DNA of 64,000 nucleotides, taken from IMG/VR virus record IMGVR_UViG_3300042988_000510, positions 1 to 64,000 of that record; one strand, given 5' to 3'. Positions 1 to 37,632 of this stretch are shown here, one piece after another (positions within the stretch are counted from its first letter, which is position 1; every line of letters starts with the position of its first letter). Below the pieces are notes generated by a model, which was not told the origin of the DNA, did no database searches, and saw only the letters and a program-made list of their open reading frames with translations. Source of the stretch: a virus. The translations under genes were made by a program, and so were the position numbers.

Positions 1-303
1 GTCGGCGGATGACATATAGCTCTCGACCTGGGCCGCATTTTCACTCGGCAGGAGGATGCGGTAGTTGCCCTTGGTCTGCGCCAGATACTTGCCCTCGCGG
101 AGCAAGATTTTCCTGACGTAATCCACCGCCGACAATTCTTGCATGCTCAGTTCCTGGAAGGTGACCATTGGGGCGACCTCCGGGACCTCGATACCGATCA
201 CGCTGCGGACGGCATCTGACGGGATGAATGCGCCATACTGATCCAGCTTATTGCGCCTGAAGTATTCCAGCAGTTCACGTGCTGGGTTCTTTTTGTCAGT
301 CAT
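1..303 (-). CDS. Hypothetical protein (3' truncated by window edge), coupled to the RAMP-like gene
   Basis: ATG at 303 overlaps the end of 296..895; the frame is open to base 1 (MTDKKNPARELLEYFRRNKLDQYGAFIPSDAVRSVIGIEVPEV...). It is missing from the ORF track because there is no stop in the window. Confidence 0.75.
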   Translation of the reverse strand, partial: MTDKKNPARELLEYFRRNKLDQYGAFIPSDAVRSVIGIEVPEVAPMVTFQELSMQELSAVDYVRKILLREGKYLAQTKGNYRILLPSENAAQVESYMSSAD

Positions 304-895
304 GCGTGATCTCCGCTTGTGCGCGGCCGAAGGTCGGGCGGAAATCTCCGAACCCGCCATACATCGCGGCATGCTTGGCAATGTCTGACAGAGATTCTGC
401 GTCGATCAGATTGTCGTCAAACTCGATGGCCGTTTTGAATGACCACTCATGAAATATCGGGGCCGCCTTGACCACGCGGACCTGGCCTTGCTTGAGGGTC
501 AGATTGATGCGGAAGTCAGGATTGCCGACGATATCCTCCGGAGTTTTGACCTTGTCTTTGTCACGGAACATGAGGGGGATTTTGTCCTCGGTGGCGAACA
601 CCGATCCACGCACATCAGCCTTGCTGACTTTGGCTTTCTTGAAGCTGGTCGCGGCAATGGCTGCCATCAGCCAACTGGAAGGCACGTAAATGCCGACACG
701 GTCATCCCAGAAAATCTTGGCTCTGACCTCTATATCCTGCAGGTCCCGGTAATCCTCATCGGTGCGCCGGGTTTTCTTGGCGTTGATCTTCGCCATGGCC
801 TTGGTAAAAGGGTTGAACCTGTCAACCGTCTGCGGATTGTTTTGCAGGAGCGGATTGATGCCGGTGACGGCGATGGTCATTTGTCGGATGGACAT
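296..895 (-). CDS. Stand-alone RAMP/Cas7-like RNA-binding protein (199 aa)
   Basis: RAMP-like motif order: N-terminal strand with 'GINPLL', then 'GIYVPSSWLMAAI' (cf. xIPGSSLKGxxR), 'APIFHEWSF', and a C-terminal glycine-rich loop 'GGFGDFRPTFGR'. Confidence 0.7.
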   Translation of the reverse strand: MSIRQMTIAVTGINPLLQNNPQTVDRFNPFTKAMAKINAKKTRRTDEDYRDLQDIEVRAKIFWDDRVGIYVPSSWLMAAIAATSFKKAKVSKADVRGSVFATEDKIPLMFRDKDKVKTPEDIVGNPDFRINLTLKQGQVRVVKAAPIFHEWSFKTAIEFDDNLIDAESLSDIAKHAAMYGGFGDFRPTFGRAQAEITHD

Positions 896-920
896 GATTG
901 GTTCCTATGGTGTGTTTATT

Positions 921-1328
921 AAACCCGCGTCGATTGTCGGCGCGAGAGTGTGAGGATTGACCCTCGGTTATCGCACTGATTGCCAATGCGATAACCGCGT
1001 TTCATTCAGATTCATTTCGGTGCTCCGCCTTACGTTTCGATGCGATGCGCCGCCTTACGCTGCGCTTGAGGACTGATCCTCGGCATTGCCCACTCAAAGA
1101 ATGAGCAACCCGCGATTCATTCCCATTCGTTGCTATGCTCTGCGATTTGTTGCTGCGCAGTGCGACGCCTTAACTTGCCGTTCCTTGCGATGCGATGCCA
1201 GTCGATGCACCTTGGGGACCGTTCCCCGGTATTACCCACTCGCAAGAATGGGTAACCCGCGTATCGGTCAGGATCGATGCTGTGCGTAGCACGGCATTCC
1301 ACTGATTTCCGGTGCGTTGCAATCCAGA
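921..1328 (-). ncRNA. Putative guide-RNA array: 5-nt-periodic tracts separated by conserved double hairpins
   Basis: Tracts at 996-1065, 1111-1210 and 1258-1327 contain 14, 20 and 14 pentamers. Double hairpins lie at 952-996, 1068-1110 and 1214-1257. Stem mismatches become G-U pairs only on the minus strand. Confidence 0.75.
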
Positions 1329-1334
1329 AAACAC

Positions 1335-1376
1335 ATTCTCTCACTGGCCGTGCCAGAAGTCAATAGCAATGCTATT
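1335..1376 (-). promoter_or_regulatory. Sigma70-like promoter for the array/RAMP operon, with overlapping palindromic operator
   Basis: Minus strand TTGACT(1363-1358)-17 nt-GAGAAT(1340-1335) with a TGn extension; palindrome AATAGCAATGCTATT at 1362-1376. Confidence 0.7.
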
Positions 1377-1378
1377 AC

Positions 1379-2881
1379 CTAAGCCGCTTTTTTATCCATC
1401 CCACCCCGAATTGCCGCCACAGCCTCGATGACCTTCAGTAGTTGGCTTTCGCTCAAGTCATCCAGTTCCGCGACGATCTGTGCGCGAAGTTTGGCTGCGA
1501 CGACGGATGCTTTGACTGGTGTCGGCGTGGTGGCCTCGACGATGCGTTGTTCTTCGTGCTTAACCGCTGCTTTTGCCAATGCGGCCTGTTCCTCTCGGAG
1601 TTTCTGCGCATCGATCCGTTGCTGCTCGGCTGCGACCCGCTGCGTGATCAGACCGGCAAGCGCGTCGGGGTCGTAATGGCAGACCCTGGCGAAGTCATGT
1701 TGGAACAAAAACCAGTTGTCCCCGATGGCTTTGCGGTTGGCCTCGATCCGATCCGCAAGCTCATTAGCCGCGATCTTTTGCTGGGCCAGTTCCGCGTCGA
1801 GCGCATCTCTGGAGCCCTTGATGGATTTCTTGCCTTTGATGACGTCACCGAATGGCACAGCAAGCACCCATGGTCCCCCAAGGCGCCTGTTTAGCGCGTC
1901 AACGTGCTGAGTTAGCTTGTCGTGATATTCGCGCACCAGATCGATCCGGATGCTGTCTTTGCGGGTCTTGACCAGCTTGTCCAGCGTCAGCCGTTTTTGT
2001 CGGGCTTCTTCGCGGATGTCGTCAATCGCCCGGAACAGTTCATCTATGCTGGCCGTCTGGCTCAGTGCATTCTGCTTGGCCGCCTCGAGTCGATCCTCGA
2101 CATCTCGGCACCATCTCACCGTGCGTTCCGCGTCGGCAAAATCCTCATCGGTTTCCAGATCGGTCTTAATGCCATCGAACACTGCCAGCGCGTGGGATTT
2201 AAAGGCATCCAGGTTCGATGCCGTGACCATCCCGGTGACCTCGATGTGCAAGGCCGGAAGTTGGTCGGGTGCGCGGCCGGCGACCGGAGTCGGGGTTTCC
2301 TGGTGCTGGTATTCGGCCAGGTCTTTGGCAAACTGCTTCCAGCCGGCGATGAGCTTTTTCCGCAGTTCCGGCACGCTTTCGTACCATGCGAACAGCATGT
2401 CATCGCGGTTGCCAGATGAAGCCATGAACAGGCACTTCTCAGCCCCTGAGAGGAGCAAAACCTGCTCAAGCTGAGGATGGTATTCCCCCGGGATGACGCC
2501 GCCCCTTAGCGCCTCTCTGAGCTTGTTGTTCAGTGATTTATGCTCGAAGGCGATGTTGCCCATGAGGGTCACGCCGTCGGTCGATGCCGAGAGCGGCATA
2601 CCGTCGATGTCCTTCGCGTGGGTGGCAGGGTAAAGTTCTTCGCCGATGATTTCCTCGGCCCACGGTCGGGCAATCGCCTCGTAGGCGTGGCCCCGATCAA
2701 AGATTTCTTGCTGGGCGTCAGAGACTTCCGGCGCGATGCCGGTAGCCTTCAGTTTTAGCAGGTCCGACCGTGACTTATGGGGGCTGATGTTCAGCATGGC
2801 CGATGCTTCGGAGGCGTTGTAGCTGCTGGCCCGATGCGCATGCCACTCGGGAGACCCTTGGATCAAGTTTTTTTCGCTCAT
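1379..2881 (-). CDS. YqaJ/lambda-exonuclease-family protein with long helical C-terminus
   Basis: 'QGSPEWHAHR', 'ASEAS', 'DRGHAYE', 'SASTDG', 'FEHK', 'YHPQLEQ'; adjacent to bet. Start taken at MSEKN. Confidence 0.85.
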   Translation of the reverse strand: MSEKNLIQGSPEWHAHRASSYNASEASAMLNISPHKSRSDLLKLKATGIAPEVSDAQQEIFDRGHAYEAIARPWAEEIIGEELYPATHAKDIDGMPLSASTDGVTLMGNIAFEHKSLNNKLREALRGGVIPGEYHPQLEQVLLLSGAEKCLFMASSGNRDDMLFAWYESVPELRKKLIAGWKQFAKDLAEYQHQETPTPVAGRAPDQLPALHIEVTGMVTASNLDAFKSHALAVFDGIKTDLETDEDFADAERTVRWCRDVEDRLEAAKQNALSQTASIDELFRAIDDIREEARQKRLTLDKLVKTRKDSIRIDLVREYHDKLTQHVDALNRRLGGPWVLAVPFGDVIKGKKSIKGSRDALDAELAQQKIAANELADRIEANRKAIGDNWFLFQHDFARVCHYDPDALAGLITQRVAAEQQRIDAQKLREEQAALAKAAVKHEEQRIVEATTPTPVKASVVAAKLRAQIVAELDDLSESQLLKVIEAVAAIRGGMDKKAA

Positions 2882-3741
2882 TGCGGTGCTCCGTTTTCGT
2901 AAGATGCAACCCACTCCTCGCTGGCCTGTTCGGCTGGAACCGCCATGGCGTGTATGGCCTCCTGCATGGCTCCGTCGACCACGTATTTGGTCGCCAGCTT
3001 TGCGATGATGCCATCAGCATTGCTGGTGCCGGCGGACAAGGCTTGAAGGATGCGTGGCTTCTGCTTCTCGAGGATTTCGGCGGTCAGTGTCGGCATCTCG
3101 GGTTTCTCGGGCTCTTTGCGGAACTGGCCCTCGATGACGTTATCCTCGCTCAGTGACTTGCCTTCCATTTCATCGGCTGTCGGCTGGGCTCCGACCTCGG
3201 GGAAGGCTTTTCTCAGTGCCTGGGCCTCCGCACATTTACTGACCTGGCCATACGGGCGCTTGGACCACATGGCGTTCGGGGCGATACTCCTTTCTTTGCC
3301 GCCTTTCACGGCGTAGTTCTCTTTCCAGCGTTCGATTGCAGAGAACTCGACGATTTCCCCACTGGGCAGCCGGCGCTTGACCGTCACCTTGCACCAGACC
3401 GGGTAGGTGATTTCCACCCCGCCGATGTTCTCCGTGACGTCGGGTCCGAACTCTGGTTCTGTGACGCCGGCATACTGGCCGGATCGGGCTGCCATCACCC
3501 GGTACGAGCCGACCCCAGGCATGATGACGTCACGCATGCGTCCGGCTTTTGAGTCCCACATGGGGACGATGTGAACCGGCTTTTGCATCGGGTCAAGGCT
3601 GGATGCCTTGCAGTACCCGATGACAAGTTTAATGCTTTCGGTGCTGGCTCCCGGGTAAAGGCTGGACTCCAGCACCGAGAGCAGTTCCTGCTCGCTCATG
3701 GCAAGCGCCGGAATGGCGTCCTGCTTTGTGGCTGCGCTCAT
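2878..3741 (-). CDS. bet: Phage recombination protein Bet/RecT (single-strand annealing)
   Basis: 'YCKASSLDPMQKPVHIVP', 'MWSKRPYGQVSKCAEAQALRKAFP', 'PTADEM'. Confidence 0.9.
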   Translation of the reverse strand: MSAATKQDAIPALAMSEQELLSVLESSLYPGASTESIKLVIGYCKASSLDPMQKPVHIVPMWDSKAGRMRDVIMPGVGSYRVMAARSGQYAGVTEPEFGPDVTENIGGVEITYPVWCKVTVKRRLPSGEIVEFSAIERWKENYAVKGGKERSIAPNAMWSKRPYGQVSKCAEAQALRKAFPEVGAQPTADEMEGKSLSEDNVIEGQFRKEPEKPEMPTLTAEILEKQKPRILQALSAGTSNADGIIAKLATKYVVDGAMQEAIHAMAVPAEQASEEWVASYENGAPQ

Positions 3742-3770
3742 GGCTTTATCTCCTGTTTTGTTGAGGTTTG

Positions 3771-3800
3771 ATTGTACCATAATCTAGTAGCTCTGCTATT
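3771..3800 (-). promoter_or_regulatory. Leftward promoter and operator upstream of bet
   Basis: Minus strand TGGTACAAT extended -10 (3779-3771); operator AGTAGCTCTGCTATT at 3786-3800. Confidence 0.6.
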
Positions 3801-32529: not shown

Positions 32530-32605
32530 GCCGGGCTCGTTCAAACGGTAGGACGTCGCATCCGTAATGCGAATGTTGGGGGTTCGACTCCCTCGCCTGG
32601 CTCCA
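32530..32605 (+). tRNA. tRNA-Thr (anticodon CGT)
   Basis: Cloverleaf: acceptor GCCGGGC/GCCTGGC, D-stem GTTC/GGAC, anticodon arm TCGCA-TCCGTAA-TGCGA, T-arm GGGGG-TTCGACT-CCCTC, encoded CCA; 76 nt. Confidence 0.85.
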
Positions 32606-35685: not shown

Positions 35686-35713
35686 AGAATAGCACTGCTA
35701 TTCGGCCTGTCAA
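35686..35713 (-). promoter_or_regulatory. Promoter of the inverted operon, with operator in the spacer
   Basis: TTGACA(35713-35708)-16 nt-TATTCT; AATAGCACTGCTATT at 35688-35702. Confidence 0.7.
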
Positions 35714-37604: not shown

Positions 37605-37632
37605 TTGCTTCTGTGAATAGCATTGCTATTAT
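37605..37632 (+). promoter_or_regulatory. Promoter and operator of an accessory operon
   Basis: TTGCTT-16 nt-TATTAT; AATAGCATTGCTATT at 37616-37630. Confidence 0.65.

Follow-up and report, generated by a model that had tools for sequence, protein, structure and literature searches.

The first 1,376 nucleotides of a viral DNA stretch of 64,000 nucleotides, hereafter called the window (the first 64 kb of the 90,100-bp IMG/VR record IMGVR_UViG_3300042988_000510, from a freshwater metagenome), carry on the minus strand a single gene for a RAMP-like protein, preceded by tracts with a period of five nucleotides and followed by a coupled open reading frame, and raise the question of what system a lone Cas7-like protein forms together with such an array. 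The original prediction had proposed a candidate new RNA-guided system outside CRISPR and had named VIPR (Viral Interference Programmable Repeat) as the closest system known. This comparison was correct (10.64898/2026.04.26.720920; 10.64898/2026.04.26.720927), and the system is not a new one since the family was already in print in 2026. We consider it highly probable that this freshwater phage, with a genome of about 90 kb, carries a VIPR locus belonging to that published family. As described in preprint 720920, VIPR consists of phage-encoded Vipr proteins of the RAMP type, an accessory vap gene and vrRNAs of 9-16 pentamers, in which the triplet GGY alternates with a hypervariable dinucleotide NN and a conserved tail follows at the 3' end. 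The NN dinucleotides are reported there to read double-stranded DNA with one target base skipped between them, resulting in silencing of competing mobile elements, and a total of seven VIPR types are recognized, with a repeat that is GGY "or a related consensus".

The gene vipr (296..895, minus strand) encodes a RAMP protein of 199 amino acids with a G-loop (GGFGDFRPTFGR) at residues 180-191. By phmmer search against PDB sequences, its residues 5-197 were aligned with residues 3-190 of the entry 36pp_D, "SUSP1 Vipr protein", with an E-value of 2.7e-23. The protein also matched phrog_4652 (E 6.4e-59) but no Pfam family. The Vipr of wV8, a SUSP1-like Felixounavirus, was aligned by hhalign to the profile of the present clade at 99.8% over 191 columns, with 29% identity. 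An AlphaFold2 model made with 28 homologues (pLDDT 89.7, pTM 0.82) was then subjected to Foldseek, the check proposed with the original prediction. A total of 58 matches were obtained at E <= 1e-3 and all those listed were CRISPR RAMPs, the best being type VII Cas7 and type III-A Csm3 (probability 1.00, TM about 0.5, E 1.4e-5 to 1e-3); the structure library used is older than the Vipr structure entry. As modelled, Vipr is a RAMP of the Cas7/Csm3-type fold, in which the putative thumb is placed by the alignment to SUSP1 residues 125-140 only.

The elements listed in the original prediction for positions 1-1376 were all found in place on the minus strand. Within 896-1400, sequence identity at lags of 5, 10, 15, and 20 was 0.32-0.35, as compared with 0.195-0.253 at the remaining lags up to 20. 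A scan of the record over 89,962 bp, in which at least 10 of 12 bases spaced five apart had to be G, picked 993-1087, 1108-1217, and 1260-1334 on the minus strand, together with a second array outside the window and three isolated stretches of 60-65 nt. By anchoring the pentamer register on the GCGG that closes each tract, the upstream tracts were resolved into 13, 19, and 13 pentamers, each closing with GCGG(G) and then followed by two hairpins. The vrRNA U1 (1214..1325, minus strand; 5' end presumed) is composed of 13 pentamers at 1325-1261 and a two-hairpin tail at 1260-1214 (-24.5 kcal/mol, z -4.0), U2 (1068..1208, minus) of 19 pentamers at 1208-1114 and a two-hairpin tail at 1113-1068 (-20.1 kcal/mol, z -2.8), and U3 (952..1067, minus) of 13 pentamers at 1063-999 and a two-hairpin tail at 998-952 (-24.7 kcal/mol, z -4.8). 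A fourth tract (924..948, minus), with four pentamers and GCGGG but no hairpins, extends into the ribosome-binding region of vipr and is probably a remnant.

Since the window starts inside the locus, the rest of vap and four further guides fall outside it. This second vrRNA array, D1-D4, is located on the minus strand at record positions 89215-89765, downstream of vap, and includes four tracts of 13-15 pentamers, which close with GGAAA-GCAAA-GCGGG (GGAAA-GCACA in the case of D4), followed by a variable stem-loop and then a GGTGG...CCACC hairpin. A fifth downstream tract is without tail, and its pentamers enter a copy of the operator described below and the -35 element of the next operon, that of a P-loop helicase-like gene. 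The three guides of the original prediction are thus the upstream ones, and the complete guides of the locus number seven, in two arrays and with two sequence classes of tail but a single architecture.

All seven tails fold into a CGG-stem-CCG hairpin plus a second hairpin (-20.1 to -28.8 kcal/mol; z -2.8 to -4.8 against shuffles), and the seven inner stems all differ in sequence. Among 254 distinct tail units of the family, collected from 70 loci, 163 fold as two hairpins and 147 give a z-score below -2, the median being -2.31 as compared with -0.85 for the tract controls. The tails were folded singly, and a covariance model was dropped since the stems were misaligned by MAFFT. Because pairing in the tails is kept through changes on both sides of the stems, a constraint at the level of RNA is indicated.

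The coupled open reading frame noted in the original prediction is present, and turned out to be a conserved Vap1-like accessory gene. Its first 101 codons occupy 1..303 on the minus strand, its ATG at 303 overlaps the stop of vipr, and it continues across the record start to a total of 167 amino acids. A homologous open reading frame of about 135-160 amino acids stands behind vipr in all of the 76 loci with a complete vipr. By hhalign, the profile of this family could be aligned over 90 columns (91%, E 1.1e-6) with the gene that stands in the place of Vap1 in wV8, and this wV8 gene is taken as vap1 from its synteny with SUSP1. Vap matched no Pfam family and gave weak PHROG matches only. A DNA-binding role for Vap would follow by analogy from the published VIPR papers.

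The association of vipr with periodic tracts was examined in homologous loci, as had been proposed with the original prediction. Homologues of Vipr were found at E <= 1e-3 for 886 of 957 candidates by the word-indexed search, and an exhaustive search of clusters at 50% identity gave 1,631 at E <= 1e-3, 678 at 1e-10, and 21 at 1e-30. At least one upstream tract was present in all 71 loci with at least 300 nt upstream, and a tract behind vap in 17 of the 41 loci with at least 1,500 nt downstream; the locus set for these linkage counts holds some records twice, from IMG/VR and from metagenomes. Vipr of Vibrio phage 1.266.O is 54% identical to the present protein and that of Listonella phage phiHSIC 49.5%. 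In these two cultured Vibrio phages, guide tracts lie between vipr and the next gene, and in 1.266.O also upstream; the genes of their VIPR loci are all annotated as hypothetical proteins. Homologues of Vipr were also noted on contigs binned as metagenome-assembled genomes (MAGs) of Saccharimonadales (L023) and Isosphaeraceae (L024), assignments that may be binning errors of phage contigs, and in an Azonexus chromosome.

The original prediction had also stated that cas and CRISPR components are absent, and this holds on a wider scale: the Pfam families of Cas1, Cas2, and RAMPs gave zero matches in the whole record of about 90 kb, no CRISPR repeat family of Rfam was found in the window, and an Rfam search of 1-3000 at E <= 1 gave nothing. 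The only Rfam family reaching its gathering score in the window is a tRNA gene at 32530-32602 on the plus strand. The locus, with no repeat-spacer array and no cas genes, and with an array period of 5 nt, does not belong to class 1 CRISPR-Cas.

What triplet is fixed in these pentamers? Among 100 pentamers of the seven tracts, G occupies position 1 at a frequency of 0.89, C and A position 2 at 0.52 and 0.28, respectively, and A position 3 at 0.66, while the information content of positions 1-5 is 1.39, 0.37, 0.57, 0.04, and 0.03 bits. For 798 homologous pentamers from 18 IMG/VR loci, the frequencies are 0.94 for G, 0.69 for C, and 0.74 for A, with 1.56, 0.68, 0.77, 0.06, and 0.03 bits. The fixed triplet is, therefore, G-C/A-A in this phage and GCA in the clade as a whole, and the free dinucleotide stands at positions 4-5, which are uninformative. 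That the triplet could be a variant distinct from GGY, as suggested in the original prediction, was borne out. As a control, the same script returned GGT/GGC pentamers (GGY/NN) around vipr in wV8 and clean GCA/NN in Vibrio phage 1.266.O and Listonella phage phiHSIC, GGY being found only in wV8.

The locus thus lacks the canonical GGY triplet of VIPR. This excludes the canonical form but not the VIPR family, because the describing paper allows "a related consensus". Non-GGY triplets are already reported in general terms: 10.64898/2026.10.21.760802 describes 21 period-5 clusters with non-GGY triplets (such as GAC/NN, CAC/NN, WGT/NN, and TGH/NN) located beside Vipr-like folds. GCA occurs nowhere in the main texts of the VIPR preprints 720920, 720927, 759431 (10.64898/2026.10.15.759431, on SUSP1 against its satellite), and 760802, but the motif or the clade may be present in Figs S16-S17 and data S4 of 720920 or in Fig. 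S10 of 760802.

The residues that would read the triplet were mapped onto the SUSP1 numbering, for which two alignments agree at 29% identity. In 720927, one protomer is assigned to each repeat, G1 is held by H17 and D177, G2 by R138 and W178, and Y3 lies in a pocket of E71, M72, R179, C173, and T175, from which purines are excluded. The counterparts of the G1 contacts are D184 (for D177) and N19 (for H17), both invariant in the clade. For G2, the position of R138 is occupied by A145, where A, V, C, T, I, or F, but never a basic residue, is found among 28 sequences, and the stacking W178 is replaced by F185. In the Y3 pocket, E71 corresponds to S74, M72 to W75 (invariant in the clade), C173 to G180, and residue 175 to F182, while the G-loop Arg R179 is kept as R186. 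The Arg and the Cys that are replaced here are kept in both solved GGY-type proteins. Contacts to G1 would thus persist where G stays, and the replaced G2 and Y3 contacts coincide with the changed bases, as far as aligned residues can tell; this pattern agrees with an assignment of the conserved G to G1 and of the free dinucleotide to positions 4-5.

The next question is what the guides recognize. No site in the phage genome itself was better than those of shuffled guides when 0, 1, or 2 bases were skipped, and a skip of 3 returned the arrays themselves. IMG/VR was then scanned with exact NN-x seeds from six of the seven guides (U1, U2, U3, D1, D2, and D3; D4 was left out). A 10-unit seed of U2 gave no match in IMG/VR. 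The 8-unit seed of D1 gave 70 matches, as compared with 5-19 for the five other 8-unit seeds, and 68 of these 70 are located in a single gene family, phrog_2300 (E 6.2e-48), which has no Pfam family and of which no homologue was found in the phage itself. In nine contigs, units 2-12 of D1 are matched in full (22 of 22 bases), and the skipped bases are not the same from one contig to the next. The two unmatched 3' units of D1, GGAAA-GCAAA, occur in three of the four downstream guides, D4 having GGAAA-GCACA instead. On the opposite strand, the D1 site encodes QGWTGGYATRS, with the skipped base at the wobble position.

The statistics of D1 are partly circular, because the 70 loci were chosen by its own seed, and we estimate a value of only about 0.01 for the extension of the match beyond the seed (7 of 8 additional variable bases, with about 25 seed families counted as independent). 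Since the D1 seed itself had selected these loci, independent guides were tested on them. From the other VIPR loci in this clade, 187 guides were taken and searched against the 70 D1-match loci (570 kb). With one base skipped, the best scores were 0.96 (25/26), 0.85 (17/20), and two of 0.83 (25/30), whereas with skips of 0 or 2 and with two shuffled sets the score never exceeded 0.82. By our arithmetic, the 25/26 match is expected about 4e-6 times in that search, and the guide concerned reaches at least 80% in 52 locus-strands. This guide and the two guides with 25/30 match a Sak4-like AAA_24 gene, the immediate upstream neighbour of phrog_2300; the downstream side is occupied by a helicase gene. 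The D1 site and the three sites in the Sak4-like gene are all on one strand, and the skipped base falls on codon position 3 in all four.

Three of the four whole target records are classed as proviruses. In bacterial genomes, the 10-unit D1 motif was found in 16 stretches on 15 contigs, as compared with about one expected (our arithmetic), one Sediminicoccus chromosome holding two of them. The carriers include two Limnohabitans, three MAGs of Burkholderiales/Burkholderiaceae, Ramlibacter, Rhodoferax, and a Bordetella MAG; four stretches in Acetobacteraceae (two in Roseococcus, one in Sediminicoccus, and one in Humitalea); and two alphaproteobacterial MAGs and one Prosthecobacter MAG. These sequence matches support, in silico, the one-base-skip rule in this clade, and the candidate target is a site conserved in prophages, within their Sak4-type recombination module; such a target fits inter-phage conflict.

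In two other cases, ten consecutive units were matched at 20 of 20 bases: U1 in contig L096:129-158 and U3 in contig L102:141-170, each with 21 of 26 overall and in frame with an open reading frame. Both were judged to be due to chance because the two contigs are very different in composition, one being very GC-rich and the other AT-rich. When 194 guides were searched all-against-all on the VIPR loci, scores of at least 0.8 numbered 11, 12, and 10 for skips of 0, 1, and 2, against 5 for shuffled guides, with no excess for skip 1; two control registers of this search were useless owing to low complexity.

By homology with the solved SUSP1 complex, each pentamer would be bound by one Vipr protomer, with the fixed triplet sequestered. 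The presented dinucleotides would read double-stranded DNA as NN-x-NN-x, one target base being skipped each time, and the resulting filament would keep the bound gene from being transcribed. That the RNAs are transcribed and processed, that a filament assembles, that DNA is bound, and that silencing follows are all extended here from the characterized systems by analogy. A lone RAMP that polymerizes on a period-5 RNA, grips the triplet, and presents the dinucleotide had been proposed in the original prediction, and the full-length match to SUSP1 Vipr argues for this arrangement. The targets are likely to be other phages, and D1 fits a conserved gene site in resident prophages of Burkholderiales and relatives.

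With respect to its organization, the whole locus is a single minus-strand operon, in which the operator and promoter are followed by three vrRNAs, the degenerate fourth tract, vipr, the Vap1-like gene, four vrRNAs, and the tail-less tract. The operator is a 15-bp palindrome, AATAGCA-N-TGCTATT (1362..1376, no strand assigned), which abuts the -35 hexamer. Four exact copies of its core are present in the record, at 1363, 35689, 37617, and 89219, and four near copies are located at about 9617, 26106, 31031, and 65049. The exact copies span 1362-1376, 35688-35702, and 37616-37630 in the window and 89218-89232 in the record beyond it. Since the copy at 89219 stands at the far end of the VIPR locus, just before the next operon, two copies bracket the locus. 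The palindrome has the appearance of an operator at which a single phage repressor controls early operons. A putative sigma-70-like promoter, TTGACT-17-GAGAAT with an upstream TG (1335..1363, minus), is the sole promoter-like site in 1-1600; the promoter scan by itself is weak because shuffled sequences average 1.0 site. It is presumed to be the start of the vrRNA-vipr-vap transcript. No terminator-like site was found on the minus strand of 1-1600.

On the 5' side of the operon, the minus strand of 1379-3780 carries genes for a RecE-like exonuclease with a YqaJ domain (511 amino acids) and a RecT annealing protein (300 amino acids). The recombination module of the phage itself is thus of the RecET type, and guide D1 points at a Sak4-type module of other phages. 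The two ends of the record (1-138 in the window and 89963-90100 in the record) are 99% identical to each other over 138 bases. This suggests a terminal repeat or an assembly closed into a circle, although the record is labelled as linear.

A number of observations weigh against the assignment to VIPR as an acting system. The repeats of this phage are less regular than those of its relatives, C at position 2 being present at 0.52 as compared with 0.69. For the Vap model (pLDDT 90.7), the best Foldseek matches were winged-helix proteins (such as ScpB and PurR), but these were weak (E 0.039-0.09), and in a wide search by VIA-align the match was confined to the C-terminal helices. A pseudoknot or outer helix between the last repeats and the distal tail found no support (cognate -6.87 as compared with non-cognate -6.60 kcal/mol, p 0.077). 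No RNA run is listed as holding the stretch; the five listed runs are all freshwater metagenome DNA, two of them possibly from the source sample. The seeds of 8 units gave 6 matches for U1, 10 for U3, 5 for D2, 6 for D3, and 19 for a second one of U2, and their extensions stayed at chance, the best being 5/10 bases for U1, 5/10 for U3, 4/12 for D2, 3/10 for D3, and 10/22 for the second U2 seed. A target was, therefore, found for D1 alone, so that the suggestion of guides against competing phages in the original prediction was supported, in silico, for this one guide and is without a target for the other six (D4 being outside the IMG/VR scans). These six gave no match in the 70 D1 target loci nor in the four whole target records; the guides of SUSP1 are reported to be convergent, whereas here the six do not converge on the D1 targets.

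The explanation that makes most of these observations is a VIPR locus in decay, with an intact protein but eroding arrays, of which most or all guides no longer direct it. It would account for the irregular triplet and for the six guides without target, and it is also in line with the closure of the upstream array by a degenerate tract and of the downstream array by a tail-less one. However, vipr and vap are complete and overlap as in the relatives, every clade-invariant residue is kept, all seven tails hold their two hairpins through compensating changes in the stems, and the 11 units of D1 that were matched to its site agree with it at 22 of 22 bases. Missed targets are, moreover, to be expected because the searches needed exact seeds of 8-10 units in a single collection. 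We regard decay of the locus as quite improbable.

Still less probable, in our estimate, is that this member of the same family has another output, such as RNA binding or cleavage or the regulation of its own genes, instead of the silencing of foreign DNA. The four sites identified all pair the guide with the coding sense strand, as a target in mRNA would, and the operator is common to the VIPR operon and other early promoters of the phage. Against this, sites in its own genome never exceed those of shuffled guides at skips of 0, 1, and 2, and the homologue characterized in 720920 is reported to bind double-stranded DNA and to silence from either strand. In addition, the locus includes no nuclease-like accessory gene: Vap is without Pfam family and its nearest relative stands at the Vap1 position. 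That the tracts act as DNA, for example as iterons or as protein-bound repeats belonging to neighbouring recombination or replication genes, rather than as guides is hardly credible, because, although they lie directly downstream of the RecE-like and RecT genes and no RNA run is listed for the stretch, tracts accompany vipr in 71 of 71 loci whatever the neighbours, the periodicity of G is confined to one strand, that of vipr, the tail pairing is kept through changes on both stem sides, and four guides have dinucleotides that correspond to coding sites when one base is skipped.

As a VIPR locus that would silence foreign DNA, the present one may be compared with those of SUSP1 and the P. fulva prophage ("type II" in 720920, structures in 720927, PDB 36pp). 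Vipr is homologous and of the same length, with the G1-contact Asp and the G-loop Arg kept; a homologous accessory gene is located directly downstream, and arrays flank both genes. As in SUSP1, pentamers of a fixed triplet and NN are followed by a 3' tail, here predicted to be structured, in a phage-encoded locus without cas genes or CRISPR array, and the in-silico targets lie in other phages, with a one-base skip at the wobble position. The differences from SUSP1 are a Vipr identity of about 29%, the triplet GCA (G-C/A-A) instead of GGY, and the replaced residues at the G2 and Y3 contacts. The arrays include three guides upstream and four downstream, as compared with one and three reported for SUSP1; the tails form two sequence classes in one locus, each with two hairpins, whereas a pseudoknot is described for the SUSP1 clade; and the candidate target is the Sak4-type recombination module of prophages, whereas that reported for SUSP1 is its satellite. 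The arrays described in 760802 share with the present ones the period of 5, a non-GGY trinucleotide, and a Vipr-like fold alongside.

With class 1 RAMPs, such as type VII Cas7 and type III Csm3, the modelled Vipr shares the RRM-based RAMP fold and the glycine-rich loop. One subunit per fixed step of the guide RNA is established for Cas7 and would hold for Vipr by homology. Unlike class 1 RAMPs, Vipr gives no match at the level of Pfam sequence families, and stands without CRISPR repeats or genes for adaptation or nuclease. The step would be 5 nt with three bases hidden, as compared with 6 nt with one base flipped in class 1 CRISPR, and the guide is encoded ready-made instead of being acquired as a spacer.

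It is a tentative proposal, on which we are more doubtful than confident, that this clade is a distinct and orthogonal branch of VIPR reading GCA/NN instead of GGY/NN. If it is true, the switch would be encoded by a few changes in the pockets, that is, loss of the thumb Arg, replacement of the G-loop Cys by Gly, and replacement of the helix-1 Met by an invariant Trp, and the GCA- and GGY-type proteins would not cross-load guides, leaving two non-interfering codes for phages and for engineers. This residue hypothesis for triplet specificity bears on orthogonal guide systems. The presence of one tail class upstream and another downstream may reflect two sets of guides that are processed or timed separately. 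If the targeting is true, the recombination module silenced would be the Sak4-type one of prophages resident in freshwater Burkholderiales. VIPR, described only months ago, is RNA-guided DNA recognition by a non-contiguous code and is proposed to be older than CRISPR. The present locus extends the published VIPR picture without changing it, adding a natural example with a different triplet, in a clade that includes two cultured Vibrio phages, and an independent in-silico support for the one-base-skip rule outside the GGY-type systems.

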